Positions 3,047-61,742 are shown, numbered from the stretch's first letter. The stretch is 64,000 nucleotides of DNA from an uncultured Verrucomicrobiota bacterium (GCA_947305775.1 CAMZEN010000007.1:61-64060), one strand, 5' to 3'. Notes: generated from the letters alone by a model not told the origin. Numbers and translations: made by a program.

Positions 3047-3100
3047 CCGTGATTCCCTTTATACTGCCTCGCTTCATTTCCTAACAAAAGGAGGCAGAAA

Positions 3101-4839: not shown

Positions 4840-4893
4840 AGGATTTTGGTGTGCGGCATAGGGTCGCATGCTTATAAAAGGAAAACAATCAAA

Positions 4894-5436: not shown

Positions 5437-5455
5437 TCTGATTCAATCAGTTCGC

Positions 5456-5490
5456 AACAAGAAGCCGCACTCATCCGAGCGCGGCTTTCT
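5456..5490 (+). terminator. GC-rich hairpin (REP-like) plus T-run downstream of B1
   Basis: GAAGCCGCACTCatccGAGCGCGGCTTTCTTATTG. The inverted repeat AAGCCGC…GCGGCTT is followed by a T-rich tract. The same hairpin family recurs at 6816-6847 and 10062-10096. Confidence 0.5.
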
Positions 5491-5548
5491 TATTGATTCG
5501 TGAGGTGGCTTGTGGCATTGGCGGACGACATGGTATAATACGGTTGGA

Positions 5549-6805: not shown

Positions 6806-6815
6806 ACAATGAAGC

Positions 6816-6847
6816 CGCACTCGAAAGAGTGCGGCTTCTTTTGCGTT
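6816..6847. terminator. bidirectional hairpin terminator / REP-like hairpin between convergent genes
   Basis: GAAGCCGCACTCgaaaGAGTGCGGCTTCTTTT lies between the stop of the plus-strand transposase-like gene (6805) and the stop of minus-strand B2 (6862). U-runs are present on both strands. Confidence 0.55.
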
Positions 6848-6861
6848 CTGACTGAATCAGA

Positions 6862-7404: not shown

Positions 7405-7456
7405 TTTGTTTATTTTCCTTTCCAGCATGCGACCCTATGCCGCACACCAAAATCCT

Positions 7457-8163
7457 TTAGAGGACCGAAGGCACCTCCATATCGACATCAGCCGACACAT
7501 TCATAAGGAACGCTTCGCCGGGAGCAATGGTAGCATCGATTGATTCCCAAGTGACGGAATCGTACCAGCCGTCAGCCATGCCAACGTTTCCGTTGAGCCA
7601 CGCCCAAGTTACATTGTTAACACCATTTTCATCAAGCACCTGAATAACTTCGGTGCCGTCACCTGCAGCATTAACGAGCTTCAGGCTCTGGATGCTAATA
7701 GGCATAGGCGTGCAGTTACCGGCAACGAAGAACCCCGTTGGAACCGTCACTGTGGTCTTGCCATTTTTGACCTGACCGGCGAACTGCATATCAACATCAG
7801 CAGAGACATTCATGAGATAGCCATCACCAGGAACGATAGTGGCAGCAATAGGCTCCCAAGAGACGGAATCATACCAACCGTCAGGCATGCCCACGTTTCC
7901 GTTGAGCCACGCCCATGTCTCATTGTTGACGCCGTTCGCATCGAGAACCTGAATAACTTCAGTTCCGTCGCCGGCACCATTGACAAACTTGAAGTTTGCA
8001 AGGTCATAGCCATCCACGCCGACATCAGTGAACGTAGGGGTCTGAAGTGAGAACCCTGTCGTCACCGTCTTAGTCTGGTAGCCGACTACATCCGAGCTGA
8101 CGATTCCATCTGCCATCGCGACGCCTGCGGCCATAACCGCTGCTGCAATCATGAGTTTCTTCA
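7457..8163 (-). CDS. secreted tandem-repeat protein, paralog A2
   Basis: Signal peptide MKKLMIAAAVMAAGVAMADGIVSSDVVGYQTKT. Same two-repeat architecture as A1. The conserved leader (reverse complement TTCTGCCGGACAGGGTGAAAATCCCTACAAAAAGGAACAAGACA) sits at 8164-8207. Confidence 0.7.
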
Positions 8164-8419
8164 TTGTCTTGTTCCTTTTTGTAGGGATTTTCACCCTGTC
8201 CGGCAGAAGTAAGAAATTCAGCAGTCTCCCTTGGGTCGCAATTAGGGGTTCGCTCTCAGGCGAACGACTTGGTTGCGAATGTCCGTTCAACTCTTGACTT
8301 TCCAACTCCTTTCGGTGTTTTTGTTTTCCCCCGTGTAGCACCGCGCCCACTGTCAGGATTTGCCGCTCTAGCCTTCACAAGCCATAACCTTGGTCTGATG
8401 GGCCTTTACGACAATGGGA

Positions 8420-8428
8420 ATTATACCA
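8420..8428 (-). promoter_or_regulatory. extended -10 box TGGTATAAT (minus strand) inside a conserved ~45-nt motif
   Basis: The reverse complement of 8417-8431 is GGGAATTATACCAAA→TTTGGTATAATTCCC. The adjacent GCGCAAGGGGGTATTTT block is shared with positions 172-190. Confidence 0.35.
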
Positions 8429-8674
8429 AATTCTCGAGCGGCAGCGCAAGGGGGTATTTTGAGAAATATTGCAGACCTCATAAAGAGCGGCACAGAGACA
8501 TAGCAGAAAGTTATATTCACTTGTATTTTTGCTTTGTTAGACTTCATCGGCCACTATGTGCGATTGATACAGGGTGTCGTGCGGCTTTGCACATTGCGCA
8601 CGCCGACAAATTAATGAGTGTATTTAGCCATTCTGCCGGACAGGGTGAAAAGCCCTACAAAAAGGAACAAGACA

Positions 8675-9397
8675 ATGAAGAAACTCATGATTGCAGCGGC
8701 GGTTATGGCCGCCGGAGTCGCAATGGCAGATGGAATCGTAAGCTCGGATGTCGTCGGCTATCAGACAAAGACAACCGTAAGCGGGTTCAACTTCTTTACT
8801 CCTACGTTCAAGCAGGTAGGGGCTCCTGGAAAAACATTCAACATCAATGATATCGTTCTCGATCCAACAACAGCAACTGGTTACGGCGATAACATTCAGA
8901 TTCTTGACGAAGGTGGTTCTACAGTAGCCTCATATTACTGGATTCCAGCAGGTGATATTGTTGAAACTGCTTGCTGGACTGAAGATTTTGGGACGGCGGC
9001 GGATGTTGATTTTGAATCAGGTATGAGTTTCATCGTCGATACCTCAGCACCTGTTGCAGTTACTGTTGCTGGTCAAGTACTCACGGGAGATTTGACTGTT
9101 ACAGCAAACGCTGGATTCAATTTCATTGGCAATGCGTCACCAACAGCCATTGACATTCAGAAAATCACTCTTGATCCTACAACTGCAACTGGATATGGCG
9201 ACAACATTCAGATTCTTGATGACGGTGGAGCCACAATTGCATCGTATTATTGGATTCCTGCAGGAGACATAACAGAAAGCGCCTGCAGGACTGAGGATTT
9301 TGGTACAGCCGCTACTTATTCAATTGAGTCTGGATTAGGGTTCATTGTTGATGTCGCAAACGATAATGTTACTGTGACGATCCCCATGGCTCTCTAA
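8675..9397 (+). CDS. secreted tandem-repeat protein, paralog A3 (divergent repeat domain)
   Basis: Leader and first ~35 codons are about 90% identical at DNA level to A1/A2. The sequence then diverges into a different two-fold repeat (…LDPTTATGYGDNIQILD(E/D)GG…YYWIPAGDI…EDFGTAA…). Confidence 0.7.
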   Translation: MKKLMIAAAVMAAGVAMADGIVSSDVVGYQTKTTVSGFNFFTPTFKQVGAPGKTFNINDIVLDPTTATGYGDNIQILDEGGSTVASYYWIPAGDIVETACWTEDFGTAADVDFESGMSFIVDTSAPVAVTVAGQVLTGDLTVTANAGFNFIGNASPTAIDIQKITLDPTTATGYGDNIQILDDGGATIASYYWIPAGDITESACRTEDFGTAATYSIESGLGFIVDVANDNVTVTIPMAL

Positions 9398-9451
9398 ACG
9401 ATTTTGTCCGGCAATGGGTCGGATGAATACAAAGAAAAGGAAAATAACAAA

Positions 9452-10039
9452 ATGAAAAAGATAATGCTTGCGCTCAGTATAGCGCTTACAGCAGGGGTGA
9501 TGCAGGCTGCGTCACTTAACTGGGTTGTAGCAGGAGTCACCCTGCCAGAAACAACAACACCCGCAAATGGCGTTGCTGTCTATATGTTCCTTACGGCTGC
9601 TGGTGGAAACACCTTAAGCTTCGTTCCTACTGCATCACTTACAACCGTTTCTGAGGTTGAGAGTGCTATTACAGGGGGTACATTTACCGGTGCGGGTGCA
9701 TACGTTAGTTCAACGCTGAATTCGTCAGGTGCCACTACAGCGGCAACAGGCGTCAGCACTTCTTTTGGAGCTGGCGATTCGCTCACGGCATTTGCAGTCA
9801 TTTTTGACAATGCAGATGTATCGCTAGCGACAAGCTATATGATCGCTCAAAGCGCGACTGGCGATACTGAACTTTCTCAATCGTGGACATCATCAACAGG
9901 CGCGAAAGTTCTTAACTGGGGCAACCAGACAACCAACGGCACGACCTGGACTTCAATGGCCGCCGTCCCAGAGCCGACGAGCGGATTGCTCATGCTCCTC
10001 GGCATGGCTGGCTTGGCGCTTCGTCGTCGCCGCGCGTAA
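9452..10039 (+). CDS. PEP-CTERM sorting domain-containing protein, paralog B3 (divergent mature domain)
   Basis: RBS AAAAGGAAAA. Signal peptide MKKIMLALSIALTAGVMQA. The Thr/Ser/Gly-rich middle is unlike B1/B2. The final ~75 nt encoding VPEPTSGLLMLLGMAGLALRRRRA are nearly identical to B1/B2. Confidence 0.75.
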   Translation: MKKIMLALSIALTAGVMQAASLNWVVAGVTLPETTTPANGVAVYMFLTAAGGNTLSFVPTASLTTVSEVESAITGGTFTGAGAYVSSTLNSSGATTAATGVSTSFGAGDSLTAFAVIFDNADVSLATSYMIAQSATGDTELSQSWTSSTGAKVLNWGNQTTNGTTWTSMAAVPEPTSGLLMLLGMAGLALRRRRA

Positions 10040-10061
10040 CCGTCGATTAAGCCCGACAACG

Positions 10062-10096
10062 AAAGAAGCCGCACTCCTTCGAGTGCGGCTTTTATT
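10062..10096 (+). terminator. REP-like hairpin terminator downstream of B3
   Basis: GAAGCCGCACTCcttcGAGTGCGGCTTTTATTTATTG. Perfect 11-bp stem followed by a T-run. Confidence 0.55.
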
Positions 10097-10109
10097 TATT
10101 GACCAATGA

Positions 10110-10275
10110 CTGTTTGTGGTATTGACGGGTGACATGATATAATACAAATGCAATGCGTTTAGAATACTCGAAAACCAGGAAGCGCATAACCCGTCGGCTG
10201 CACACGCATTTCGCCGCAATTGCCTCGCAATGAACGACATCGCCACGAAGCTTTGCGGTGAATATAATAAAGCCG
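10110..10275 (+). pseudogene. internally deleted remnant of the IS200/RAYT-like gene (5' ~60 bp joined to 3' ~90 bp)
   Basis: 10121-10190 aligns to 5520-5580 (…GATATAATAC…ATGCGTTTAGAATACTCGAAAAC…). 10195-10270 aligns to 6735-6805 (…CATTTCGCCGCAATTGCCTCGCAATGAACGACATCGCCACGAAGCTTTGCGGTGAATA…). Confidence 0.5.
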
Positions 10276-10309
10276 CGCTGGGGTAAGATGTGCTATAATA
10301 TGCTACATC

Positions 10310-10684
10310 ATGGAAGCAAAACCATTAGGCATAATCGCAACTGTCGCCATGCTCGTCATGAGCAACCTTTTCATGACCTTCGCCTGGTATTGGCACCTTC
10401 GGCTCCAAAAGCCCGGCGCATCACATTGGCCCCTTCTCGCCATAATATTTGTGAGCTGGCTGATCGCCCTGGTCGAATACATGATAGCCGTTCCGGCCAA
10501 CAGGGTAGGTGTAGCCTCCGGCCTTAACGTCGCGCAGCTCAAGATAATCCAGGAGGTGGTTACCGTCTGCGTATTCGTTCCGTTCATGATCCTTTTCATG
10601 GGCGAGAAATGGCGTTGGGACTACCTCTGGGCCCTTCTGTGCATGGTGGGCGCTGTCTACTTCGTCAACCGGTCCAAGCTCTAG
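10310..10684 (+). CDS. DMT-family small membrane protein (DUF486)
   Basis: 124-aa protein with four predicted transmembrane helices. The SNLFMTFAWYWHLRL motif is typical of the DUF486 family. A TATAAT box lies ~10 nt upstream of the ATG, suggesting a possible leaderless transcript. Confidence 0.65.
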   Translation: MEAKPLGIIATVAMLVMSNLFMTFAWYWHLRLQKPGASHWPLLAIIFVSWLIALVEYMIAVPANRVGVASGLNVAQLKIIQEVVTVCVFVPFMILFMGEKWRWDYLWALLCMVGAVYFVNRSKL

Positions 10685-49437: not shown

Positions 49438-51390
49438 TTATTGGGCGAGCGCGGCGGACACGTCGGCAAGAACCTGACGCAGCGCCTTGGGGACGCGGTG
49501 GGCCGTCTTGGAGGCAACCTTGGAGTCCTTGGACGGCTTGGCGTCGTACTCGTCGTACGAGGCGCCGACCGTTGCGATCTCCTTCTTCCAGCCCTCGACG
49601 TCAACCTTGAGGATCTCCTCGAGGTCGGCCTTGACGACATGGAACTTCGCGGTCTCGTCGTTGTTCGAGAGATCGATGTCCTGCGCGAACGGGATGTTGC
49701 CGATCGGGGTCTCGTTGGCCTTCACCTGACCCTCTATGCGCTGGCAGATCCACTTGAGGACGCGGCTGTTGTCGCCGAAGCCAGGCCACATGAAGCGGCC
49801 ATCCTCGCCCTTGCGGAACCAGTTCACGAAGTATATCTTGGGCAGCTTCGTCGCATCGGCGGAGGTGCGCTCCATCTCCAGCCAGTGCTGGAAGTAGTCG
49901 CACACATTGTAGCCGAAGAACGGGAGCATCGCCATCGGGTCGCGGCGGACCTGGCCGATCTGGTCGGAGATGACGGCGGCGGTGACCTCTGAACCGGCGG
50001 CGGAACCCATGAACACGCCGTGGGTCCAGCTCTTTGCCTCGTTCACCAGAGGAATCGTCGAAGGACGGCGTCCACCGAAGAGGACCGCGTCGATCGGCAC
50101 GCCCGTGGGCTTCTTGTTGTAGAGGCCGTTGAAGCCGGCCTTGTCCAGCACGGGGCAGTTCTCGGCGGGGGCGGTGAAGCGGCTGTTCTTGTGGGCCGCC
50201 ACATAGCCGAGCTCCTTGATCTCCTTCTTGGTCATGCCGGGCTTCGGACCCATGCGATATGGATCGTCCGCGCAGACGTAGCAGGGATTGCCCTTCCAGT
50301 CGACGCCTTCCTTAGGAGCCTTGACGCCCATGTCCTCCCACCAGATGTCGCCGTCGGGCGTAAGAACGACGTTCGTGAAGATCGTGCCCTTCTTGCAGCT
50401 CTTGAGCGCGTTGGGGTTGGAATCCATGGAAGTTCCCGGCGCAACGCCGAAGAAGCCGTTCTCGGGGTTGATTGCGTAAAGACGGCCGTCGTCGCCGGGC
50501 TTGAGCCAAGCGATATCGTCGCCGATCGTCTGGAGCTTCCAGCCATCGAGCTTGGGCTGCATCATGGCGAGGTTCGTCTTGCCGCAGGCGGACGGGAACG
50601 CCGCCGTAACGTGATACTGCTTCTTCTCGGGAGAAGTGAGCGTAAGGATGAGCATGTGCTCGGCCATCCAACCCTGATCCTTGGCGAGCTTGGACGCGAT
50701 GCGGAGCGCGAAGCACTTCTTGCCGAGGAGGGCGTTGCCGCCGTAGCCGGAACCGAACGACCAGATCTCGCGGTCCTCAGGGAACTGCGTGATGTACTTG
50801 TCTTCGATCTTCTTGGCGCAGGGCCAGGAGACGTCCTTCTCGCCCTTCTTGAGAGGAGCGCCGACGGAGTGGATGCAGGGGATGAAGTCGCCATCCGTGC
50901 CGAGATGCTTGATCACGGCGTCGCCGGTGCGCGTCATGATGTTCATGTTGACGACGACGTAAGGCGAGTCGGTGATCTCGATGCCGTACTGGGTGATCGG
51001 GTTGCCGATCGGTCCCATCGCGAACGGGATGACGTACATCGTGCGGCCCTTCATGCAGCCGGTATACGCCTTCGTCATCTTCTTCTTCATCTCGACGGGA
51101 TCCATCCAGTGGTTCGTCGGGCCCGCGTCGATCTCGCGCTTGGAGCAGATGAACGTACGACCCTCGACGCGCGCAACGTCGCTCTCGTGCGAGCGGGCGA
51201 GGTAGCAATCGGGACGCTTCTTGGCGTTCAGTTTTATGAACTGCCCGTTCTTGACCATCATCTCGCAAATGGCGAGATGCTCGGCCTTCGTGCCCTTCAC
51301 GACCACGATCTTATCGGGCGTGCAGACCTTGTTCCACTTGTCAACCCATGCGAACACCTTGGCATTCGCGAACTTCGGCGTCTTGGCCAT
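49438..51390 (-). CDS. pckG: phosphoenolpyruvate carboxykinase (GTP)
   Basis: Kinase-1a motif FPSACGKTNLAM and overall GTP-PEPCK sequence. 650 aa. Confidence 0.9.
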   Translation of the reverse strand: MAKTPKFANAKVFAWVDKWNKVCTPDKIVVVKGTKAEHLAICEMMVKNGQFIKLNAKKRPDCYLARSHESDVARVEGRTFICSKREIDAGPTNHWMDPVEMKKKMTKAYTGCMKGRTMYVIPFAMGPIGNPITQYGIEITDSPYVVVNMNIMTRTGDAVIKHLGTDGDFIPCIHSVGAPLKKGEKDVSWPCAKKIEDKYITQFPEDREIWSFGSGYGGNALLGKKCFALRIASKLAKDQGWMAEHMLILTLTSPEKKQYHVTAAFPSACGKTNLAMMQPKLDGWKLQTIGDDIAWLKPGDDGRLYAINPENGFFGVAPGTSMDSNPNALKSCKKGTIFTNVVLTPDGDIWWEDMGVKAPKEGVDWKGNPCYVCADDPYRMGPKPGMTKKEIKELGYVAAHKNSRFTAPAENCPVLDKAGFNGLYNKKPTGVPIDAVLFGGRRPSTIPLVNEAKSWTHGVFMGSAAGSEVTAAVISDQIGQVRRDPMAMLPFFGYNVCDYFQHWLEMERTSADATKLPKIYFVNWFRKGEDGRFMWPGFGDNSRVLKWICQRIEGQVKANETPIGNIPFAQDIDLSNNDETAKFHVVKADLEEILKVDVEGWKKEIATVGASYDEYDAKPSKDSKVASKTAHRVPKALRQVLADVSAALAQ

Positions 51391-51458
51391 GTTTTTTACT
51401 CCTTAAGGTTGCCCCTTTTAGGGCGTGATTAAAGCATTGTGTTGATTATATCATAATA

Positions 51459-52040
51459 CTACGCATCCGCGCAACCGCAAAACGGTTCTATTCCGGAAAG
51501 AGGCGGGTGCTTCTTGTCCTTTTCGCTGAGCGTCAACGGCACACCTATCTCCGGCCACTTTATTCCGAGCGCAGGGTCGTCGAAACGCATGCCCCTGTCG
51601 GCCTCAGGATTGTAGAGGTTGTCGCATTTGTAGCTGAATAGCGTATTGTCCTCAAGCACTATGAAGCCGTGGGCGAACCCCCGAGGAATGTAGAACTGCT
51701 TCATGTTCTCGCCCGATAGCGTAACCGCCACATGCCTGCCGTATGTCGGCGAACCCTTGCGTATGTCAACTGCGACATCCCAAACGGCACCGCGTATCAC
51801 ACGCACCAGTTTGGCCTGCGTATGCGGCGCAGCCTGCCAGTGAAGTCCGCGCACAACGCCCTTCATGGAGAAGGATTCGTTGTCCTGAACAAAATCGGAC
51901 ATTATGCCGGCCGCCTTGTAGCGTGCCGCATTGTACGTTTCGCAGAAGTACCCGCGAGCATCCCTGAACACATTCGGCGTAACGATCTTTACGCCTTCGA
52001 TTTCGGTTTCAACTACTTCCATGGCAAAAAATTGTACCAT
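51459..52040 (-). CDS. rfbC: dTDP-4-dehydrorhamnose 3,5-epimerase
   Basis: RmlC cupin motifs (…RGLHWQ…QAKLVRVIRGAVWDVAVDIR…). 193 aa. An alternative start at the internal MEVVET is possible. Confidence 0.85.
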   Translation of the reverse strand: MVQFFAMEVVETEIEGVKIVTPNVFRDARGYFCETYNAARYKAAGIMSDFVQDNESFSMKGVVRGLHWQAAPHTQAKLVRVIRGAVWDVAVDIRKGSPTYGRHVAVTLSGENMKQFYIPRGFAHGFIVLEDNTLFSYKCDNLYNPEADRGMRFDDPALGIKWPEIGVPLTLSEKDKKHPPLSGIEPFCGCADA

Positions 52041-52053
52041 ATCAGGCCGCTCA

Positions 52054-52215
52054 ATGCAATACGAGTTTTATAAAATGCGCGTCTGCGCATTGCCGCGCGA
52101 CATCTTAGAGCCCGCTTGGCATGACTGGATTGTGAAGCGCGAGGACCAACTCGACGCCTTTCGCCGCTACATTCGCGAAAACCCCGCCCGCGCCAGCCGA
52201 CGCGACCGTCCTAAG
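52054..52215 (+). pseudogene. C-terminal remnant of a second RAYT/IS200-like Y1 transposase
   Basis: Translation …WHDWIVKREDQLDAFRRYIRENPARASRR matches the catalytic-Tyr helix YI(R/K)xNP(A/V)RA and parallels KAIRNYIKLNPARA in the gene at 5549-6805. The HUH region is absent. Confidence 0.4.
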
Positions 52216-52299
52216 CGTCCTACTAGCCGCCCACAACCCAACCACGACTCTCCCGCGACTCTTGGACAAAAGTGCGTGCACTTTCTGGACAACACCGAA

Positions 52300-52815
52300 A
52301 AAGCGGGGACAGTCCCCGCACTCACCCAAACCTTTGCGACCTTCGCGAACTTCGCGTGAGTCCACACCCGCCCCAAAAAGCGGGGACAGTCCCTTGATTC
52401 GCGCGGCACACTTATTGCAATAAGTGTTCCAAGACTTCATTGTTCTGCCCGCTATTCTGCGGGTACGGATGCCAACTGAAGCCGAAAAGATGAATTTCTA
52501 TGCAATAAACCTGCCAGATACCTTCGTATCATCCAGTCCGACCTTTGTATCATCCAGTACCGACTCTGTATCATCCAGTAGGGACCTTTGTATCTTTGTG
52601 ATACACAAACAGAGAAACAAAACAGATAACAAAACAGATTTTAACAGAGAACCAATTGCCCTGGATAAAGTTGTTGAATCCATGTAGAGACTGTCCCCCC
52701 CCCCCCAAAAAAAAAAGCGGGGACAGTCCCCGCACTCACCCAAAACCTTTGCGACCTTCGCGAAGTTCGCGTGAGCTCCCACCCCCGCAAAAAGCGGGGA
52801 CAGGCACCGCAAGTT
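52300..52815 (+). repeat. composite repeat element, copy A (REP-like hairpins plus iteron core)
   Basis: Near-identical to 58860-59365. Contains four AAAAGCGGGGACAG(TCCCCGC) hairpin units. 18-bp palindrome CACTTATTGCAATAAGTG (52409-52426). Three GTATCATCCAGT iterons at 21-bp spacing (52526-52579). Inverted pair TGTATC…GATACA. C12A10 tract (52695-52716) enclosed by GACTGTCCCC/GGGGACAGTC. Confidence 0.75.
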
Positions 52816-52944
52816 CTGTGATGTCCAGAAGCTAATGCAAGATTCTCTTGCGTTTAGTTCTGAACACGACACGATCAAGCGCGGGGAGCCCCGCCTTATA
52901 ATGCCTAGCCGGTGCGGAGATGCACAGTGGTTTTGAAAACAAAA

Positions 52945-54894
52945 CTACTCGCCGAACTTGACCTTGAAGAACTGCGAGGGTGCCGCCTCGGGAGCGGCGA
53001 CCTCGAGAGTCATCTTGACCGCGCTCTTCTTCTCTTTGACAGTCACGCCGCCTGCCATCGGCGCAGCATCTTCAAGCTCGGACAGGGATCCGGCGCGGTA
53101 AACCTTGACGACATCCTCATCGACCGCCACGCCGGAAGCGTCGTTCTCGATTTCCGCAAAGATTGTGATCGTGCACTTGTCGTTCTCGACCTGCGCGAAC
53201 TTAACTACTTCCGACGCGCCGCCTGTTCCGAATGCCGGCTCGGCCACCGCGCCCGTCACCGCGACACCGTTGATTGTCACGCGAATCCCCCCTGGGATGG
53301 ACACCGCATGTGAGGTCGCGCCCTCGATGACATCGCCATCCGCTGCCGTCCAATCGGACTCAAGAAGCGAAAGGTCAGCAATCTTGCTGAATGTCGCAGT
53401 GTAAGTCGTGTTGCTCACAGCCGGTTCAATCGCAGGCGTCCAGCCAGTAAACACCCAGCGGTAAGGTGCGTCAGCCCCACCTTTCGTCGCTGCAGCGTGT
53501 GCAGGCACCGCATTGCTGGGAACGATTGTCGTCTCGATCTCCGTACCGTCTTCGTTGAGCCATGTGATATCGAACTTGTATTCCGGCTCAAAAATAAGCG
53601 TTTTCCCATCCTCGCTTTCGTACCGTATCACATTTTCGGAAATGTTTTGAGCAGCACCAACATAGACAGTAGTTTTACCGTGAATTTCGACCCTACTTAT
53701 CGTTGACTCGACCGTCAGAGTGCCGCACCAGATTGTGCCAGGATTATATAAACTAGTACCGCTAGCGACGACGGTAACCTCACCACCCTTGAACGTGACA
53801 GAAGTCGTGTAAATAGCGAAATACGAAGATGTCTCGATCTCAACAACACCACCTTCAAATACGATGCTGCTTTCAACAGAGGAATCTCTTCGACCAATTA
53901 CACCGTTGTTTACAAGTCTGCCGGTGCTCCCCTTTATCGTCAGAGTCGGTGCTGTTCCATTTACGCGAATGGCATAGTATGTAACATTTGACACTACATT
54001 CACCGTTTCGTCGGCAAGAATTATGGTGGCACTGCCGCTGCAGTCGATTGCGGGGGCATCACCTCCTTCGGGAATCGAAATCGTCGCATCCGACAAGGTT
54101 ATGGTCGCACCATCAGGAATTATAATACCGTATGACGTGGAGCCTGTCAGCACATCGCCGTTATGGACCGTGTATGTTCCGGTCAGTTCCGACAAATCGA
54201 CCGTTGTGCCGGTCGTGCCCGGATCGTCGCCTGGATCATCGCCCGGGTCTTCACCAGGATCTTCCGCCATCTTCGCCTGAGTGATGGTGACGGTTTTCCC
54301 GGCTATGTATATTGTAGCCTGGCGGGCGTCGCCAGTGTTCGCCGCGACAGTGAAGTTAACGCTTCCAGGGCCGCTTCCGCTGTTAGCCGAGAAGGTTATC
54401 CAATTGCAGGACATATAATTCTCCACAGCGTAGGTGCTTCCCCACGAAACGCCGGAATCGACCGAAACGGTCAGCGTGCCGCTTCCGCCAGATGCTTCGA
54501 ATGATGTCTTGCTGCATGATACTATTGCACTTTTGCCGGATTGTGTAATATCGCAGGCTGCGTTCCAGACGGACGTGGAACCTTGGAGCCTGAAATACAC
54601 ATGCAAAAGTCGCTCATTTACAGAGGTGCTTTTCGATACTGTCACCGTCACCGAATCGCCTATACTGATGTATTGCTTGTTGACAGAAACGCTCGAATCG
54701 GATGTAAACACATAAAGTTCAGTTGATGATGGCCATTCACCCGTGCTGGTGTATTCGCTGGTTATGGAAAAGGTGCCGCCGTTGGCCGAGACGGTTCTTG
54801 TCTTTGGCGATATTGTCCAGCCAGCAAACGATTGCAGAGCGGAGAAGACCGCCAACGAAAGACAGGCAAGTGTTGCCAGAGTCTTGTTCTTCAT
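52945..54894 (-). CDS. large secreted beta-rich (Ig-like/BACON-like) protein
   Basis: Signal peptide MKNKTLATLACLSLAVFSALQSFA. Thr/Ser/Val-rich repeated beta-strand segments. Acidic (GEDPGDDPGDDPG) linker. 649 aa. Confidence 0.5.
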   Translation of the reverse strand: MKNKTLATLACLSLAVFSALQSFAGWTISPKTRTVSANGGTFSITSEYTSTGEWPSSTELYVFTSDSSVSVNKQYISIGDSVTVTVSKSTSVNERLLHVYFRLQGSTSVWNAACDITQSGKSAIVSCSKTSFEASGGSGTLTVSVDSGVSWGSTYAVENYMSCNWITFSANSGSGPGSVNFTVAANTGDARQATIYIAGKTVTITQAKMAEDPGEDPGDDPGDDPGTTGTTVDLSELTGTYTVHNGDVLTGSTSYGIIIPDGATITLSDATISIPEGGDAPAIDCSGSATIILADETVNVVSNVTYYAIRVNGTAPTLTIKGSTGRLVNNGVIGRRDSSVESSIVFEGGVVEIETSSYFAIYTTSVTFKGGEVTVVASGTSLYNPGTIWCGTLTVESTISRVEIHGKTTVYVGAAQNISENVIRYESEDGKTLIFEPEYKFDITWLNEDGTEIETTIVPSNAVPAHAAATKGGADAPYRWVFTGWTPAIEPAVSNTTYTATFSKIADLSLLESDWTAADGDVIEGATSHAVSIPGGIRVTINGVAVTGAVAEPAFGTGGASEVVKFAQVENDKCTITIFAEIENDASGVAVDEDVVKVYRAGSLSELEDAAPMAGGVTVKEKKSAVKMTLEVAAPEAAPSQFFKVKFGE

Positions 54895-55066
54895 GTCTGT
54901 TACCCTTATACGCTTGTTCCGTTCGGCTGTTTGCCGCAGGGGTTGAACGGAAGAAGTCCCCGCGACACGTTCTGCTGAGACGGCTGGCATGACCACATCC
55001 AGACAACCAGTCGCCATACTTACATACGCATGGCGCAGGGAAAAATTATGCGGCGAGGGGAAAAAA

Positions 55067-55663
55067 CTATTCGCCGTAAGCCGACTCGACGGCGGCGATC
55101 ATGCGATCGATGCGGTGCTTTATCTGGCGAAGCGCGTTGATCTTGAGATCATGTGCGGCGGCGACCTCTTCCGCAGGGCGGCAGTCGAGTGCGTAGGCGC
55201 GATATGCCGCGACAGTGCGCGGGTCCAGCATCGTCCGCGAAAGCACATGCTCAACCGCCGCCGCATGACGCGCCGCGCGAAGGCGTACATCGACAATGGT
55301 GGCAGCGTCCATCACACCGGACTCGACCTCCAGCCCATCAATCGGCACCGTGCGCCCTTCTCCTCGCGCGGCGGCGCGTCTGTGCATATCTACGAGAAGC
55401 CGCCGCACCATCGAGTAAAGATAGCTCCTGAAGCGACCCTTCTTGCGTTTGTAGCCGCCGCCACGCAACACGTCCACAAGCCGGATCATTACTTCCTGCA
55501 CCACATCGTCGGCGTTGCTCCCATTGACGCCGCCCAGCTCATCTGCGTATCGCCTTATCACCGGCGTGTACAGCTCTGCAAAGCGCTCCCATTCCGCAGA
55601 GTCGTCGCCGTCGGCAAACTCGGATATCTTCCGCAAAAGCGTCTGAGGAGTGTCTGGCGTCAT
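55067..55663 (-). CDS. RNA polymerase sigma-70 factor, ECF subfamily
   Basis: Region-2-like DDVVQEVMIRLV…YLYSMVRRLLVDMHRR. C-terminal region-4 HTH (…HDLKINALRQIKHRIDRM). Overlaps the downstream kinase gene by 4 bp. Confidence 0.65.
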   Translation of the reverse strand: MTPDTPQTLLRKISEFADGDDSAEWERFAELYTPVIRRYADELGGVNGSNADDVVQEVMIRLVDVLRGGGYKRKKGRFRSYLYSMVRRLLVDMHRRAAARGEGRTVPIDGLEVESGVMDAATIVDVRLRAARHAAAVEHVLSRTMLDPRTVAAYRAYALDCRPAEEVAAAHDLKINALRQIKHRIDRMIAAVESAYGE

Positions 55664-57342
55664 TGTCTCTCCATGGCGAGGTCCGGCCCGATGCAGATCC
55701 GGAACAATGCATGTATCCCTTCAGGCTTGCATATCCAGCGCGCATCGTGCGCCTGACGGATAAGGCATTTGGTTCCGCCGCGCAGCGGATCGATCTCTTC
55801 TGCGGCGTACGCAAGGTCGTCGGACGAATTCACGCGGTCGAGCACGACCTGCTCGCTGTCGGTCCAGCCACATGAAATGCCCCACCCGTTGAACGCCTTG
55901 TGCGGAAGCAGGCGGATGTCGTCGCGATAAGCGACACCAGACACGTTCGTCGCTGCCTCTGCAAGGTTCCTTGTCGCACCCGCGTCCCAATACACGTCTT
56001 CGAACGCAAGCGGCCATTTGCCGCCTTCAAGAAGCGCATATTCAAGTTCCGCCTCGGTCGGAAGGCGAAAGACGTAGCCCTCGGGAAGAATGTGGCCGTA
56101 GGTGCGGTTCAGGCACCGGCAGAATTCCTCGCCTTCTGGATACCACAACCTGTATACGACATCATATTCCGGGAAGGCGGCTTCGAATGCGGCTGACGCC
56201 ATGTCGCGCTTCCGGTTGGCCTTGATTGTGCGGCACTGCCGCGCGGCAACCGGCATCGCGCCAATCCAGAACGGGCGCGTTATCGTCACCTTGTGGTCAG
56301 GCTTGTTGTTCGGCCATTGCCCGCTGGACATCATGAACGATCCTGCCGGGCACGCGCAGAAGACCATTTCGCCGCCGCCATCCAAGGCGAGCGACTTTAC
56401 GCGCGGCGTATGGAACGTTGGCGGAAGAGCCCATTCGCCTTCAGTATCGAATCGAGACAGCGACTCTGACCCGTTCGCCGGCGGATCATTTAATCGGAAC
56501 ATCACCAGACCCGCAACAACAGCAAACGCTGCAGATACCGTCAAAGCCGCCGCGATGCGCCGTCCGCGGGATGGTCGATGACCGGCCACTCCCAAGAGCT
56601 GAGGTATCGACCGACGCCAGAAATCGCCAAACGGGGCAAGCATTCCACCTACATCCACCCCCGGTTCGTACCACATGCCGGTAAGCAGCCTGAAAAACAT
56701 GACGCCTAGCGCATACCTGTCGGATTCAGGCGTCGCGGGCGCGCCGGCGCGGACCGCCGGAGAAAGGTAGAAGTATGTTCCCATCACGGGGCGCGTTCCC
56801 GTAGATTCGCCCTCAACGAACGTTGTGGTAACTTCGAGTGCGTCCTTAAGCTCTTCGCCGAAGATGCGCGAGACGCCAAAGTCGGAAAGGTGCGCATGAC
56901 CGTCGGCGTCTATGAGAACATTCTCCAGCTTGACGTCGCGATGCACCACACCGCGCCGCGCAAGGTAGGCAAGGACGCCGGAAATTTCCGCAAACCAGCG
57001 GCGGGCGTCCGCATCCGATACGGCGCCCCGCTTGCGCAAATCCTCAAGCGTAGTGGCCTCGCCATCGCGGCCAAGCACGAGATCCATCGTGAAGAACGGC
57101 TCCCCGCCGGACTCGTCCTCTCCGGCGTCGTATACTCCAACGAGGTGCGGATGGGCCAGGTGCGACAGCAACCGTGCTTCTGCACAAAAACGCTTCTTCA
57201 GAAAATCCCCGTTCTTCTTCGTCACCGAAAAGAGCTTAAGAGCAAAGCGTCGACCATTCTGGGACTCGACCTCGTATACGCGCCCCATTCCGCCTCGTCC
57301 AATGAAGCGGACGATGCGATACCTTCCTATATGACCGTCCAC
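55660..57342 (-). CDS. Ser/Thr protein kinase fused to a C-terminal FGE-sulfatase (SUMF1-like) domain
   Basis: Hanks kinase motifs (GRGGMGRVYEV, ALKLF, HRDVKLENVLID, DFGVSR). A transmembrane segment (AAALTVSAAFAVVAGLVMF). FGE-family domain (…FWIGAMPV…YRLPTEAELEYALLEGG…). Confidence 0.75.
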   Translation of the reverse strand: MDGHIGRYRIVRFIGRGGMGRVYEVESQNGRRFALKLFSVTKKNGDFLKKRFCAEARLLSHLAHPHLVGVYDAGEDESGGEPFFTMDLVLGRDGEATTLEDLRKRGAVSDADARRWFAEISGVLAYLARRGVVHRDVKLENVLIDADGHAHLSDFGVSRIFGEELKDALEVTTTFVEGESTGTRPVMGTYFYLSPAVRAGAPATPESDRYALGVMFFRLLTGMWYEPGVDVGGMLAPFGDFWRRSIPQLLGVAGHRPSRGRRIAAALTVSAAFAVVAGLVMFRLNDPPANGSESLSRFDTEGEWALPPTFHTPRVKSLALDGGGEMVFCACPAGSFMMSSGQWPNNKPDHKVTITRPFWIGAMPVAARQCRTIKANRKRDMASAAFEAAFPEYDVVYRLWYPEGEEFCRCLNRTYGHILPEGYVFRLPTEAELEYALLEGGKWPLAFEDVYWDAGATRNLAEAATNVSGVAYRDDIRLLPHKAFNGWGISCGWTDSEQVVLDRVNSSDDLAYAAEEIDPLRGGTKCLIRQAHDARWICKPEGIHALFRICIGPDLAMERQ

Positions 57343-57354
57343 GATTGACAGGTA

Positions 57355-57870
57355 TTATAGCATATCAAGCGGGAACGAACAACGGAGGAGCGGCAGAAAT
57401 GGTAAGATTTCATGCAGCCGCTTTATGTATGCTTCAGTCAAGGCGGACGTGGCGGTCATGATTATCTTATCGACTGCGCGGAAATGGTTCGCCGTCTCGA
57501 CAATATCGTCAACAGGCACGTCCGCGCCAAACTCACCTATCGTCTTCGTCTCGAAGATCCATCGTGTCTGTTCGTGCGTAAGGCGACTTCCCTCGATGTG
57601 GTTCGAGTTGTAGGTGATGTCAATTTGAAGGCGATGGTAAAGTCCGCCTGAGATGCGTGAACTTCGCTCCGCCTCCAGAACGCCGAGAACGGTTGTGGGG
57701 AATGTCCGGCGGCGCTTGCGCTCAGGCTTGGCGGCATTAGCCGGTATTCGCCATTCTCCTTGATCTAATATAGCCCCTGCTATGCGGTTGTCGGCGCAAT
57801 ACGAGCGTACCTGACGGGGTGTTATTCCCCATTTTGCGGCAATCTCTTCTATAGTCATAAAATCCATCAA
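57355..57870 (-). CDS. HTH domain plus Fic N-terminal fragment (3'-truncated Fic-family ORF)
   Basis: N-terminal MerR/excisionase-like HTH (TIEEIAAKWGITPRQVRSYC). Then the Fic N-region motif YNSNHIEGSRLTHEQTRWIFE. Ends before any HPFx(D/E)GNGR motif. Confidence 0.5.
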   Translation of the reverse strand: MMDFMTIEEIAAKWGITPRQVRSYCADNRIAGAILDQGEWRIPANAAKPERKRRRTFPTTVLGVLEAERSSRISGGLYHRLQIDITYNSNHIEGSRLTHEQTRWIFETKTIGEFGADVPVDDIVETANHFRAVDKIIMTATSALTEAYIKRLHEILPFLPLLRCSFPLDML

Positions 57871-58273
57871 AAAGCCTCCTTCGTGTTTTGCGGAAGTTTA
57901 TCCCCCTCAAAAGGAAGTATATCAAAGAGCAAATTGTGGGCTGATTTGCCAAGATAAACTTCCGCAGCACTCATGTATTTCATAGTTCACCTCCATGCGA
58001 AACTTTTTCCACCTGAAGCGAAATATATCCCGCGATTTTTAGGTGCTGACCCCATGGAAGTGCATGTCGGGGTGATGGCATCCACCCTGTCACCGTTGAA
58101 TCGCCGCAACCACGCTTTGATGCCGTCATACTGGGCGCGGCAGAACTTCTTGGAAACGCTCATCGCGCAACGCCCCCTCGCCGGAACCGGCATCATGCTG
58201 CGGTTCTCCACACGCTTCAGCCCCGACATGATCAAGACGGCGTATGCTCCGGTGCAGGTAAAGGCGTTGACGA

Positions 58274-58855
58274 TCATTTGATGTAACCTTTGCGCTTGTC
58301 CGCCACAACCTCCCAATGTCCACCTTTGTCAGGGCCGACGCGGCGGATGAGGTTGGCGTCTTTCAGCTTGCGGATGTTCCATCTCACGCCGTCAACTGAA
58401 AGCCCAGTAGCGTTCGCCAGCTCTGCCAAAGTGACATCCGGCATCGACTTCATGACCGACATTATTTTCTCGGTAGTTTTCTTGTCAGTCTTTGCGGCGG
58501 CAATCTCGTATGCCTTGCCCTTGGCCTTGAGCGTCCGCAGAATCTTGTCGAGCATGAAATCGATGAACGGCCCGCACTCGCCGGCGGCGGTTGAGGCGCG
58601 GATTGCCTGGTAGTATTCCTGCTGGTGCGCCCAGACGATGTTCTCGACGGGCGCACCGTAGAACTCGTTGCGCCAGGAGCCGAGAAGCGCGGTCTGCCAG
58701 AGCCGCCCGGTGCGTCCGTTGCCGTCCGGGAACGGATGGATGAACTCGAACTCGTAGTGGAACACGCAGCTCTTGATCAGCACGGGGTCTTCGCTGTCCG
58801 CAAGCCATGCGAAGAGGTCTTTCACGAGCGAGGGAACGTTAATCAAGCGCGGGGA
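58274..58855 (-). pseudogene. Fic family protein, 5'-truncated at the boundary of repeat copy B
   Basis: Contains the Fic catalytic motif HPFPDGNGRTGR and a C-terminal winged-helix (…LAELANATGLSVDGVRWNIRKLKDANLIRRVG…). The expected ~80 N-terminal Fic residues are replaced by repeat sequence upstream of ~58855. Confidence 0.5.
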
Positions 58856-58859
58856 CCCA

Positions 58860-59365
58860 AAATTGAGAGCGCGAAAAGCGGGGACAGGCCCCATGTGCGT
58901 TGCGCGTGAGCCCACACCCGCCCCCAAAAGCGGGGACAAGTCCCCTGATTCGCGCAGCACACTTATTGCAATAAGTGTTCCAAGACTTCATTGTTCTGCC
59001 CGCTATTCTGCGGGTACGGATGCCAACTGAAGCCGAAAAGATGAATTTCTATGCAATAAACCTGCCAGATACCTTCGTATCATCCAGTCCGACCTTTGTA
59101 TCATCCAGTACCGACTCTGTATCATCCAGTAGGGACCTTTGTATCTTTGTGATACACAAACAGAGAAACAAAACAGATAACAAAACAGATTTTAACAGAG
59201 AACCAATTGCCCTGGATAAAGTTGTTGAATCCATGTAGAGACTGTCCCCCCCCCCCCAAAAAAAAAGCGGGGACAGTCCCCGCACTCACCCAAAACCATT
59301 GCGACCTTCGCGAACTTCGCGTGAGCCCACACCCGCCGCAAAAGCGGGGACAGGCACCGCAAGTT
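58860..59365 (+). repeat. composite repeat element, copy B
   Basis: Direct repeat of 52300-52815. Same hairpins, 18-bp palindrome (58959-58976), three iterons (59077-59130) and a C12A9 tract (59246-59266). The left-most hairpin unit is diverged. Confidence 0.75.
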
Positions 59366-59399
59366 CTCACCAACCCAGCCAACCCTTTCTTTAGGTTCG

Positions 59400-59810
59400 G
59401 GTTGGATTTACTTTCTATTCTCTTTTGTGTCTCACTGTGAGACGGTGGGGGGCTCACTGTGAGACGGTCTCCCCCTCACGAGAAGCAGGCTGCGGCCTCG
59501 CGAGGTGCACCCTAGGGGGTAGCACGGTGCGGGTCCCTAACCTGCACGCTCTCCGTCTAGGGGGTTTTTCGACTGCGACCCCCTAGGGTCAGCTCGTCAG
59601 CGAGACGCCCGCTCTCCCAGCTGAGACGCTCTCCCAGGCTGGCGGGCGCTGCGCAAAAAAGACCCTAGGGCAAATGAAAAAGACCCTAGGGCGACAGCAA
59701 AACTTCCCTACGGGAAAACGAAAAGTCCCCTAGGGCTAAATCAAATCAACAGCACGGGAAAAACAACATGGCAAAGCCAAAATTCACAAAATAGCCTCCG
59801 GGGGTCCGTC
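59400..59810. repeat. palindrome-rich noncoding region
   Basis: Two copies of CTCACTGTGAGACGGT. At least six copies of the palindrome CCCTAGGG, three of them in AAAGACCCTAGGGC context. The GAGACGCCCGCTCTCCCA block is shared with 27003-27020. No ORF with coding character. Confidence 0.55.
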
Positions 59811-60828
59811 ACAACCCGCAGATTCGCCGCATATTATCCATGAAAACATGTTTGGCGAAGCTGGAAGCATTAGCGCGACAGGCATCAACCGACCATGGGC
59901 GAGACTCGAATTCCTCTATTGCGCCGCAAAGCGATTCGACGGATTCTTCGCCGAAGAAAAGCCCGGTTTCGCCATCGCGAACGGTCTCGAGCGCACCGCC
60001 TTTGCCGAGCGCGATAACGGGCGTGCCAGCCGCCTGCGCCTCGACCGGGACAATGCCAAAATCCTCGACACCCGGAAAGAGAAGCGCCCTCGCCCCCGCA
60101 TAAATAGACCGAAGTTCGATGTTTGTGACGTTTCCGCCACCGGCAACCACAAGACGCCTGCCCATCCTGCGACATGCATCTTCAGCCAAATCCAGCCGTT
60201 TGTACGATACATTTGCGCCGACAAAGAGGTAGTAGCCTTGGTCGGACCTTTCGACATTCCGGAAGAAATCAACATCTACCGGCGGATGCACGACAACCGA
60301 ATCGCGGCCGTATATCCTCTTTATGCGATCCGCCACAAACGCGGAATTTGCGACAAACTCGTCAACACTCTCGGCGCTCTTCAGATCCTCCTTGCGGAGA
60401 TATCCGGTGAAGAGCGCCATGGCAAGTTTGCCGCCGACTCCTGCGTTCCGGTAATATTCGTCATGCATGTCCCACAAATAGCGCATTGGAGTGTGGCAAT
60501 AGCATATGTGCCGCGCACCCTTCGGCTTTCGGATGCCCTTTACAGGTCCGGATTCGCTGGAGACAATCAGGTCGTACCCGTCCAAGTCAAGCAATCTGGA
60601 CGCGATAGGCATGAGCGGGAGATACGCCTGTGGATGCCTGCGGCCAAGAGGAAGTCGCGATATCAAACTTTCCGTAACACGCCGTCCCTCGAACAGTCCC
60701 TCCATGTTCTTAGGCAGATACGCATGAGTGAAAATATCTGCCTCGGGTAGCAACTCGCCAAGCGCGGCAAGCACCTTCTCTCCGCCACGCACGTTCGTAA
60801 GCCAGTAGTGAAGAAGAGCTGTCTTCAT
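59809..60828 (-). CDS. glycosyltransferase family 4
   Basis: C-terminal GT-B EX7E region EDFGIVPVEAQAAGTPVIA. 339 aa. Confidence 0.75.
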   Translation of the reverse strand: MKTALLHYWLTNVRGGEKVLAALGELLPEADIFTHAYLPKNMEGLFEGRRVTESLISRLPLGRRHPQAYLPLMPIASRLLDLDGYDLIVSSESGPVKGIRKPKGARHICYCHTPMRYLWDMHDEYYRNAGVGGKLAMALFTGYLRKEDLKSAESVDEFVANSAFVADRIKRIYGRDSVVVHPPVDVDFFRNVERSDQGYYLFVGANVSYKRLDLAEDACRRMGRRLVVAGGGNVTNIELRSIYAGARALLFPGVEDFGIVPVEAQAAGTPVIALGKGGALETVRDGETGLFFGEESVESLCGAIEEFESRPWSVDACRANASSFAKHVFMDNMRRICGL

Positions 60829-61742
60829 GTCGAATCCCTCAAAAGGCCTGCAAGTGCGTCCGAATCCTCAACAGCGAAGAGTTTTGCCGCCGCATAGCCC
60901 TTCAGCACATCGCGATTGCCCGGACAGTCCGATGCCATAACCCTTCGCCCTCGTGCAACAGCCTCGAGCAGCAAGTAAGGCATGCCTTCCCATCTGCTCG
61001 GCGCGACAAGCGTCCTGCCGCACACCATGTACACCCCGGCGTCTGGAATCTCGCCGGCGAACTCAACAATGTCAAGAATGCCTCTCTTCGCGGCAAACTC
61101 CTTGTCCGCCGCCAAAGTCTCCCCGCCGCCTATCATTAGAACACGCTTGCCGTCCCTGCGCAAATCTTCCTGAACAGCCGCAATCGCACGCAAAAGGATG
61201 TCCTGTCCTTTCTGCAGATTGAACCGCGCTATGCATACGAACGCGAATTCATCCTTGCCGTAGCGCAAGCCCGTCGCAGGCATTGTGAACTCAGAAAGCT
61301 CCACCGTATTGGGCTCCACCGACACAGGAAGAGATGGACCATACAGTCGCTGGATATCAGCCGCGTCAGTTTCCGTAAGCGCTATCAGACCGTCGCATCT
61401 GCGGTAGAGCCAGCGTTCCAGCCAAAGGCGAAAAGTCCGCTTAAGCCGATTGGCGGCCACCTTCGGCAGAAAGTCGTATTTGCGCAGATGTATGCCGTGC
61501 ACAGTGAAAACGACCTTGCCCTTGGGCCGCGAAAATGGATTACCCAAAAGCTGCACCAACGCCTTCAGGTGGTTGACGTGTATGATTTCCGCGGCCCACT
61601 CGTCCATCTTCGCGGCGGTGCATTCGCCTCGATCCGAGAAGAACACCCGCGTCTCGTCGCCAGGATGCGCAGCGATCTGGCGACGGATATACTCCATCCC
61701 ACCACCAACCGAATCGCGGTCTATGAGATAGGCGATCTTCAT
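60825..61742 (-). CDS. glycosyltransferase family 4
   Basis: …SRWEGMPYLLLEAVARGRRVMASD… 4-bp overlaps with neighbours. Confidence 0.75.
   Translation of the reverse strand: MKIAYLIDRDSVGGGMEYIRRQIAAHPGDETRVFFSDRGECTAAKMDEWAAEIIHVNHLKALVQLLGNPFSRPKGKVVFTVHGIHLRKYDFLPKVAANRLKRTFRLWLERWLYRRCDGLIALTETDAADIQRLYGPSLPVSVEPNTVELSEFTMPATGLRYGKDEFAFVCIARFNLQKGQDILLRAIAAVQEDLRRDGKRVLMIGGGETLAADKEFAAKRGILDIVEFAGEIPDAGVYMVCGRTLVAPSRWEGMPYLLLEAVARGRRVMASDCPGNRDVLKGYAAAKLFAVEDSDALAGLLRDST

Follow-up and report, generated by a model that had tools for sequence, protein, structure and literature searches.

Two near-identical direct repeats flank a cluster of signaling genes in an uncultured Verrucomicrobiota bacterium (GCA_947305775.1 CAMZEN010000007.1:61-64060; the whole stretch of 64,000 nucleotides that was analyzed is called the window here, with positions counted from its first letter). 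Do these repeats delimit a composite module that moves or amplifies as one unit, as an earlier reading made from the DNA letters alone (the sequence-only reading) had proposed, or did they come to lie on either side of the genes by another route? Had a novel composite mobile or amplifiable signaling cassette been present, it would have deserved notice; the evidence does not support one. The explanation that we favor, and consider reasonably probable, is that the repeats are a scar left by recombination and insertion at short, dispersed repeats, that the core of each repeat is a relic of a replication origin, and that the operon between the copies is not cargo.

Identity and divergence within the two repeats

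In blastn searches of each copy against the whole window, 52353-52817 (left copy, 465 bp) aligned in direct orientation with 58903-59367 (right copy, 465 bp) at 97.4% identity over 467 columns (774 bits), with a start-to-start spacing of 6550-6551 and no third copy in the 64-kb window. A repeat scan (find_repeats-type) and MAFFT agreed with blastn on both copies, as did a global alignment; neither the repeats nor the parts into which we divide them are assigned a strand. The sequence-only reading had described the copies as >95% identical over ~480 bp at 52300-52815 and 58860-59365, bracketing 52945-58855. This is essentially right, including the bracketed interval, except that both copies were begun slightly too far to the left: left of 52353, the two sides have in common only a degenerate hairpin unit (52298-52352 versus 58872-58902, the latter with an internal deletion).

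The base-by-base alignment that the same reading had proposed as a check revealed 12 differences between the copies, five in 52353-52405, seven in 52707-52817, and none in the 301 bp between them (52406-52706). Since the chance of 12 random differences all missing this block is (164/465)^12, or ~4e-6, each copy is heterogeneous, with a perfectly identical center and edges that are 6-7% diverged. The identical tract measures 301 bp, or ~340 bp if a difference in the length of an A-run is ignored. A simple tandem duplication was ruled out, as the similarity ends at the repeat ends.

Each repeat is a non-coding mosaic of the form U-K-U, in which a core of ~315 bp (K) lies between hairpin units of ~100 nt (U). 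K-left (52397-52711) and K-right (58948-59261) are identical except for an A-run that is shorter by one A in the right copy, and their GC content is 0.46-0.48 in windows over the core versus ~0.55-0.63 in the neighboring genes. The left copy comprises units U1 (52298-52396) and U2 (52712-52817); the right copy comprises U0' (58872-58947), which carries the internal deletion, and U3 (59262-59367). The identical tract does not follow these borders: it begins 9 nt inside K and on the right extends past K into U2, up to 52747. At the K/U boundary, a C12 run is followed directly by A10 (A9 in the right copy; 52695-52716 and 59246-59266); these are hypermutable homopolymers, which read T10G12 on the minus strand just after a terminator hairpin.

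K gave no sign of coding constraint by tblastx or by codon-position counts, a sigma-70 promoter scan found no promoter inside the repeats, and Pfam returned no family for any open reading frame (ORF) of at least 78 aa scanned inside them. K is not a known RNA, because Rfam at E<=1 had no match over 51000-61000. The 87-aa ORF that lies in each repeat should be annotated with caution, as a gene fragment.

An assembly artifact, with a single repeat wrongly duplicated or a misjoin at the repeat, would also place two copies in one contig, and short contigs that carry relatives of K (L001 and L015-L017) do end at or near the element, which indicates that such repeats break assemblies. However, the copies differ at 12 positions, their left hairpin units differ in structure, and all four junctions are unique sequence. 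The junction between the operon and U2 is moreover confirmed independently by a related contig, L012. We regard an artifact as extremely improbable.

The enclosed operon occurs without the repeats

The 6.1 kb between the copies is best explained as a self-contained kinase, sigma factor, and secreted-protein operon together with two Fic pseudogene fragments, and the bracketed genes all lie on the minus strand. The operon begins with a Ser/Thr kinase that has a C-terminal FGE-sulfatase-like domain (55660-57342; Pfam Pkinase E=8e-34, FGE-sulfatase E=7.6e-8), whose gene overlaps by 4 bp that of a 198-aa extracytoplasmic function (ECF) sigma factor (55067-55663; Pfam Sigma70_r2 E=2.2e-10). It ends with a secreted BACON-like protein of 690 aa (52945-55017), which itself has no Pfam match; its homologs share 78-97% identity, and distant ones carry BACON domains (PF13004/PF19190). 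Upstream of the kinase gene, on the same strand, lies a conserved region with a TATAAT (57343-57404).

Starting from homologs that share 89-97% identity with the 690-aa protein, we reached three related metagenome contigs, L012, L013, and L014. L012 matches window positions 57380-52717 at 98.6%, and L013 and L014 match 57404-52804 at 96.6% and 95.4%, respectively, so that the similarity of the upstream region ends at 57404 in the latter two and at 57380 in L012. Beyond the matched stretch, the flanks of all three are unrelated to the window on both sides, and none of them contains K. On the upstream side, the operon is preceded by a paralogous kinase-sigma cluster in L013 and L014 and by different sequence in L012. 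On the downstream side, one U and, directly after it, an acyl-ACP thioesterase gene follow in L012, and L013 and L014 have other sequence without U, followed in L013 by a tRNA-like sequence identified by eye. One 4.6-kb operon is thus seen in four contexts at 95-99% identity.

The conserved entity is this 4.6-kb operon with its own upstream region (52804-57404), and not the cassette of the sequence-only reading, inside which the upstream breakpoint (57404 or 57380) falls. Because L012-L014 carry the operon with different flanks and without K, the operon is independent of the repeats.

The operon resembles the Ser/Thr-kinase-linked ECF modules of the Planctomycetes-Verrucomicrobia-Chlamydiae (PVC) bacteria in that the kinase gene overlaps the sigma gene and a secreted protein follows, with a paralogous set in tandem in L013; kinase-associated ECF groups are among those that PMC7826278 catalogs. 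The FGE-sulfatase-like sensor domain and the BACON-like partner of the window operon are identified at the domain level only. In L013, two paralogous kinase/ECF-sigma/secreted-protein sets stand in tandem (628-5811 and 6347-10668), which suggests that this family of signaling modules expands by local duplication.

K appears to be a relic of an origin inside an O-like initiator gene

The first feature within K is a 20-bp perfect palindrome, ACACTTATTGCAATAAGTGT (52408-52427 and 58959-58978), in a part that has no counterpart in related contigs, and K ends with the C12A10 pair. Its middle holds an iteron array with a 21-bp period repeated 3.5 times around the core GTATCATCCAGT (52520-52594; Tandem Repeats Finder (TRF) score 108), which closes with a short palindrome, TGTATC-TTTGT-GATACA; next comes an A-rich tract made of the 12-bp repeat AAACAGATAACA in 2.7 copies (52607-52639; TRF). 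The GTATCATCCAGT motif occurs six times in the window, always within the two repeats, versus 0.8 times expected.

Relatives of K were sought by pattern and by protein. An iteron-pair pattern, scanned in genome (one per species), metagenome, and viral collections, yielded L001 as the only true relative; ten further hits (L002-L011) were rejected as chance tandem repeats in low-GC DNA. L001, an 'uncultured Lentisphaerae' rumen metagenome-assembled genome, shares 201 bp at 91% identity, in a non-syntenic position ~130 bp from a contig end. The 87-aa ORF spanning K (52424-52687), used as a protein query, retrieved three predicted proteins, P0019-P0021, and their contigs. One of these, P0020 (L016), reaches upstream into a winged-helix domain (Pfam HTH_36 E=1.7e-11) and matches many PHROG families that are annotated as O-like or as replication initiation (best E=1.6e-11). 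Among protein representatives, an intact initiator of 226 aa, P0142, was then found in the rumen metagenome contig L021; residues 84-143 of this initiator match K at 72% amino acid identity in the frame of the 87-aa ORF (tblastn, E=1.5e-18). By nucleotide and tblastn similarity, window positions 52475-52676 (plus strand) are accordingly assigned to the middle of an O-like replication-initiator gene, namely the end of its winged helix-turn-helix (wHTH) domain and the linker after it, with 86-91% nucleotide identity to L001, L015, L016, and L017 and 86-93% across the five contigs. The 21-bp repeats encode a low-complexity linker (TFVSSS...) just after the wHTH domain.

In L021, the unit comprises, in order, (i) three TTTTACCGCGGTAAA motifs, (ii) a promoter-like TATAAT, (iii) the initiator gene, (iv) an overlapping gene of 251 aa, and (v) a TTTTACCCCTAGG array, and it sits between toxin-antitoxin genes and ftsH. 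The 251-aa product matches the PHROG 'DnaC-like helicase loader' (E=1e-17) and, weakly, DnaI/primosome chains in PDB (E=0.003-0.01). In all, relatives of K occupy five unrelated loci in related bacteria, one intact and four decayed, and none lies beside the signaling operon. Occurrence at unrelated sites with no association to the cassette, which the sequence-only reading had named as grounds against itself, is thus seen across genomes and not within one.

The window holds neither an intact initiator nor a loader by tblastn, and the DNA-binding and C-terminal domains of the initiator, as well as the left-hand TTTTACCGCGGTAAA array of the intact element, are also absent from it. Because the initiator and the loader are missing here and stand together only in L021, we file K as a relic: it derives from the origin within the gene of an O-like initiator and is not a working module. 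K is the fossil of a small replication module, with ~200 bp kept from the middle of a lambda-O-like initiator gene. The part kept is the origin-bearing part in that family, with its 21-bp iterons, short palindrome, and A-rich tract; what has been lost is the helicase-loader gene and, from the initiator, both the DNA-binding and the C-terminal domain.

Such a layout, with the origin inside the O gene, has been described for lambda and Shiga toxin phages (PMC7466680). The family of K shares with the lambdoid O/P module an N-terminal winged helix (HTH_36), in-gene iterons after that domain, then an A/T-rich tract, and then a helicase loader. Unlike the lambdoid module, however, the intact relative is only 226 aa long, its loader is DnaC/DnaI-like and not lambda-P-like, no phage genes surround the L021 unit, searches of IMG/VR found nothing, and the window keeps the origin part only, which makes it a relic. 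Neither a 20-mer from K nor the initiator-family alignment had a match in IMG/VR, and the initiator, when compared by tblastn with GenBank phages and PLSDB plasmids, gave generic wHTH matches only.

Conservation within K is uneven. Between the window (52517-52662) and the related contigs L001, L015-L017, and L021, the 74-nt iteron array is free of substitutions and the 59-nt A-rich tract has one, the preceding 42 nt (end of the wHTH domain) carry nine, and a 13-nt palindrome carries four, one of them a compensatory pair. Copy number varies: there are three iterons in L001 and L015-L017, two in L021, and one in P0143, and one 12-nt A-rich repeat is missing in L017. In more distant initiators (P0145-P0147, 44-49% identity), the linkers are also repetitive, with a different sequence. 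This unevenness points to a constraint that would act on the DNA rather than on the protein, as far as substitution counts can tell.

The right copy appears to have been the first of the two. Just past it, a 22-bp repeat in 2.2 copies (CTCACTGTGAGACGGT...; 59431-59479, TRF) is followed by an array of the CCCTAGGG motif (59510-59745) with five exact copies and a 21-bp period repeated 4.1 times at 59656-59745; all five sites in the window fall within 226 bp (59510-59735), against 0.4 expected. CCTAGG clusters also lie downstream of the iterons in L001, L015, L016, and L021 and do not occur in ~57 kb of other related sequence; apart from these arrays, CCTAGG is nearly missing from this and related genomes. 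No array of this kind accompanies the left copy. Because the CCTAGG array still follows it, the right copy is in the native context of the module, and the left copy is secondary.

The compact initiator-loader unit of ~1.9 kb (L021 4440-6320; parts of it in L016 1-800, L015 200-1100, L017 100-725, and L001 7290-8000) contains no integrase or transposase in these rumen PVC metagenome contigs. Nested-deletion derivatives at different loci (L016; L001 and L017; L015) keep the iterons and the same outer arrays, and their flanks differ (a tRNA-like sequence by eye in L015, a CAAX protease with recJ, toxin-antitoxin genes with ftsH). Judged from this arrangement, the unit looks like a discrete element that occupies multiple sites.

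Hairpin units and the case for a mobile K

Each complete U consists of a hairpin, GCGGGGACAGTCCCCGC, a 55-nt spacer with a second palindrome (CGCGAA.TTCGCG), and a third hairpin, and it folds as three local stem-loops (z = -3 to -4; z=-3.0 for U1). The exception is U0', which was delimited by repeat scan, MAFFT, and global alignment and folds no better than shuffles (z=-0.9). All four units in the window lie at the repeat locus, with none elsewhere in the 64 kb. U1 and U2 are 92.5% identical over 93 nt, and U3, which is complete, is 94.1% identical to U2 and 94.6% to U1; every pairing falls at ~92-95%, and units on corresponding sides are no closer than the others. On the minus strand, T-runs follow the U hairpins, which a terminator scan calls terminator-like in U1 and U3, and U2 reads as the terminator GCGGGGACTGTCCCCGC followed by T10. 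To judge from these features, the hairpins probably act as terminators of minus-strand transcription to either side of the operon and would insulate it transcriptionally.

The one unit downstream of the operon in L012 (4634-4728, 98.9% identity) is the ortholog of U2, and U is missing at the equivalent point of L013 and L014. Relative to these two, U is therefore an insertion, placed exactly after ...GGACATCACA. The left U-K-U is bounded by a 37-nt inverted repeat that is 78% complementary (52283-52319 and 52794-52830) and includes, outside the hairpins, the motif TTCTGGACA.CAC. The right-hand copy of this motif is also present in L013 and L014, which lack U and K, and the motif may mark a site favored for insertion instead of the end of an element.

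U resembles the repetitive extragenic palindrome (REP) and bacterial interspersed mosaic element (BIME) families, as well as REPINs with their REP-associated tyrosine transposases (RAYTs), in being made of short, GC-rich extragenic palindromes arranged as mosaic units at gene ends and terminator-like. It was likewise inserted in one lineage and is absent from a sister lineage, and a possible RAYT remnant lies next to it. That remnant (52093-52200, plus strand) retains ~36 codons and lacks its N-terminal part. Residues 55-90 of its ORF match positions 101-136 of 146 in the NCBIfam profile REP_Tyr_transpos at E=0.097, below the profile's cut-off of 80 bits, with no Pfam match and no transposase in a PDB search, so that the claim of the sequence-only reading that the left repeat abuts a RAYT remnant holds for the position and is weakly supported for the gene. 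By the definition given in PMC3337134, a REPIN is an inverted pair of REP hairpins; in U, by contrast, the hairpins are direct and 77 nt apart and form three separate local structures. Also unlike REP and REPIN-RAYT systems, which have tens to hundreds of copies dispersed through a genome, the four copies of U in 64 kb are all local.

These features allow a different account of the mosaic, in which K or U-K-U is a non-autonomous element, similar to a miniature inverted-repeat transposable element (MITE), a palindrome-associated transposable element (PATE), or a REPIN, that was moved by a Y1/RAYT-type or REP-targeting transposase encoded elsewhere and inserted twice independently into hairpin arrays, with the 6-kb spacing incidental. 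Several observations favor it, the first two of which also weigh against a scar. K is 100% identical between the copies, and the U parts are 6-7% apart in every pairing, which a single simple duplication does not fit; an extra step is needed, either gene conversion or separate movement of K. Inverted hairpin halves, GGGGACAGTCCC and GACTGTCCCC (13 nt, 92% complementary), bound K with the A-runs outside both, at the same relative position within the hairpin units of both copies, so that K itself could be a mobile MITE-like unit. The insertion of U relative to L013 and L014, the inverted repeat around the left copy, and the RAYT-like remnant beside U1 would be in keeping with this account. Two other points temper the scar explanation: the counts of U and K copies cover the 64-kb window of this genome, and the contigs used for comparison stem from metagenomes of strains that are related but not identical.

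The pattern of differences argues otherwise. Three of the 12 differences (52388, 52394, and 52405) fall in the 26 nt with which the supposed left end of K begins, and the identical tract mismatches the supposed boundaries, continuing on the right into U2. The window-specific parts of K were seen nowhere else, either in the 64 kb or across ~130 kb of related loci. The 37-nt inverted repeat has a right arm that belongs to the native flank of the operon and is present in L013 and L014, the RAYT match lies below any threshold, and the direct orientation of the REP hairpins in U departs from the inverted one of REPINs (PMC3337134). We therefore consider independent insertion of a mobile K or U-K-U unlikely.

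Under the scar explanation, the most likely cause of the identical center is that the copies recently underwent gene conversion or that K was recently copied. Since the identical tract starts inside K and runs past it into U2, recent gene conversion between older copies gives a better fit than either one recent duplication or a transposition with clean ends.

The whole unit compared with known mobile and amplifiable systems

The unit formed by the repeats and the segment between them shows none of the features of a composite transposon or an integrase-type island that were examined. Across 52945-58960, a Pfam search of the large and several smaller ORFs identified kinase, sigma, Fic, and HTH domains only and no recombinase domain, with which NCBIfam agrees, and ARAGORN found no tRNA or tmRNA gene in the window. 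The outer flanks, ...GGACAACACCG before U1 and CACCAACCCAGCC... after U3, share no target-site duplication. No inverted ends bound the unit; inverted repeats surround the left copy only, and one of their arms is native operon flank. A unit with the same ends was not found in the three related contigs, which share 52804-57404 or 52717-57380. With no transposase or recombinase in the repeats, no integrase, no tRNA, and an operon that recurs without K, the composite mobile or amplifiable module of the sequence-only reading is not supported.

Like a composite transposon, the locus has two repeat copies that bracket accessory genes, and one of its junctions truncates a gene. Unlike one, its repeats carry no transposase, the unit has neither terminal inverted repeats nor a target-site duplication, and the supposed cargo recurs without the repeats. 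It differs from an integrase-type genomic island in lacking a recombinase gene and a tRNA/tmRNA attachment site. A parallel exists with direct-repeat deletion or amplification units, such as those between insertion sequence (IS) copies, between rrn operons, or of the solo long terminal repeat type, as the 6.1 kb lie between two direct copies that are perfectly identical over 301 bp. In contrast to such units, the repeats are no IS elements, and there is no sign here of copy-number change or of an arrangement kept for that purpose.

A perfectly identical stretch of 301 bp in direct repeats suffices for RecA-dependent pop-out deletion or for amplification by unequal exchange, and in this respect the sequence-only reading was correct that the repeats are long and identical enough to serve as substrates for homologous recombination. 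Excision or amplification of the 6.55-kb unit would, we infer, proceed only through host RecA-dependent recombination between the copies. RecA-mediated deletion or amplification of this kind is plausible as a generic property of repeats and would not be evidence of a dedicated system. The related contigs contain no clean allele with a single repeat.

On the composite-module reading, the unit would be a discrete module that moves, or was built to amplify, as such; in one version, it would be a 6.55-kb circle with one repeat and an iteron origin that integrated by a Campbell-type event and could pop out and replicate with an initiator and a loader supplied in trans. The perfectly identical direct repeats that bracket the segment would suit it, and the origin core of K looks complete (3.5 iterons, palindrome, and A-rich tract) and shows better conservation than the protein-coding part beside it. 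Two iterons plus the AT-rich region are reported to be the minimal unwinding unit of lambda (PMC7466680), and intact initiator-loader modules exist in related bacteria. However, the shared segment 52804-57404 is not bounded by the repeats, and its surroundings differ three ways on the left and three ways on the right; of the four 'cargo' genes, two are truncated pseudogene fragments; and the window holds no initiator, loader, or recombinase. Moreover, U parts that are 6-7% diverged are unexpected after a recent Campbell integration, and no homolog of the module was found in viral contigs. We give this account little credence.

The survival of the iteron and A-rich core in at least five independently placed copies raises a related possibility, namely that this core has been under selection at the DNA level after the initiator gene decayed, with the relics serving either as origins activated in trans or as decoys that titrate the initiator. 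The substitution pattern leaves this as a long shot. If the relics were origins served in trans, recombination between the copies would release a replicating, amplifiable 6.55-kb circle with the signaling operon; if they were decoys, they would block the replication of incoming related elements, which would resemble the inhibition phenotype of ori-lambda fragments (PMC3349717).

Broken Fic genes and the wider neighborhood

The ~1.5 kb beyond the operon holds two Fic pseudogene fragments, both on the minus strand. Fragment B (57405-57870) retains an N-terminal HTH_17 domain (Pfam E=8.4e-5) and the start of the Fic region, and it is cut at its 3' side by the operon upstream region, with the junction at 57404. 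Fragment A (58274-58855) retains the C-terminal Fic part (Pfam Fic positions 30-93 of 93; NCBIfam SoFic 173-297 of 361) and a winged HTH (HTH_24), with ~170 N-terminal residues missing. One repeat copy sits at the truncation point of a Fic gene, in line with the sequence-only reading, which had stated that the right repeat truncates such a gene. That reading had also taken the repeats to have arrived by insertion, which agrees with the absence of U at the equivalent point of two related contigs and with K as a fragment of a mobile replication module. The ~400 bp between the Fic fragments (57870-58274) contain short ORFs without a family match, with a GC content of 0.44 at 57750-58049.

A 14-mer, ATCAAGCGCGGGGA, occurs just inside both ends of the bracketed segment (52871-52884 and 58841-58854). 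As an attachment site or microhomology junction it was set aside, since its left copy belongs to an operon flank that is contiguous in four genomes and the E-value in BLAST over the whole window is only 0.42; the match could also be due to chance.

To the right of the locus lies a glycosyltransferase (GT) cluster (GT4, GT4, GT2, GT2), whose best-named homologs are from Kiritimatiellae, and to the left lie rmlC and the phosphoenolpyruvate carboxykinase gene (PEPCK). In two relatives (L018 511-1065 and L019 7434-7988), rmlC is the first gene of an rmlC-rmlA-rmlB-glycosyltransferase cluster that lies upstream of GT4; the window has an rmlC gene (51459-52040) that stands alone, downstream of the repeat region and next to PEPCK. 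It was possibly displaced by the same rearrangements. An empty site could not be defined through the GT4 homologs, as the closest long contigs (78-83% amino acid identity) each have a different gene downstream of GT4.

Order of events and significance

The order of events that fits these observations would begin with the insertion of a small initiator-loader element into the rmlC-GT4 region, where it would have decayed; U units would have inserted or spread, and recombination would have taken place at the repeats. The resulting rearrangements would have put the operon beside broken Fic genes and made the second U-K-U.

The finding is a new instance of repeat-mediated mosaicism, and not a new kind of element. 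It offers a worked example of how dispersed hairpin units and relics of mobile elements shuffle gene neighborhoods in uncultured rumen PVC bacteria (Kiritimatiellia/Lentisphaerae-like). The tiny initiator-loader element, with decayed copies that keep the iterons, is the more curious by-product and is modestly novel: the locus points to a very small element made of an initiator and a loader, in which the initiator gene encloses the origin and each end bears a motif array, and whose derivatives keep the iterons.

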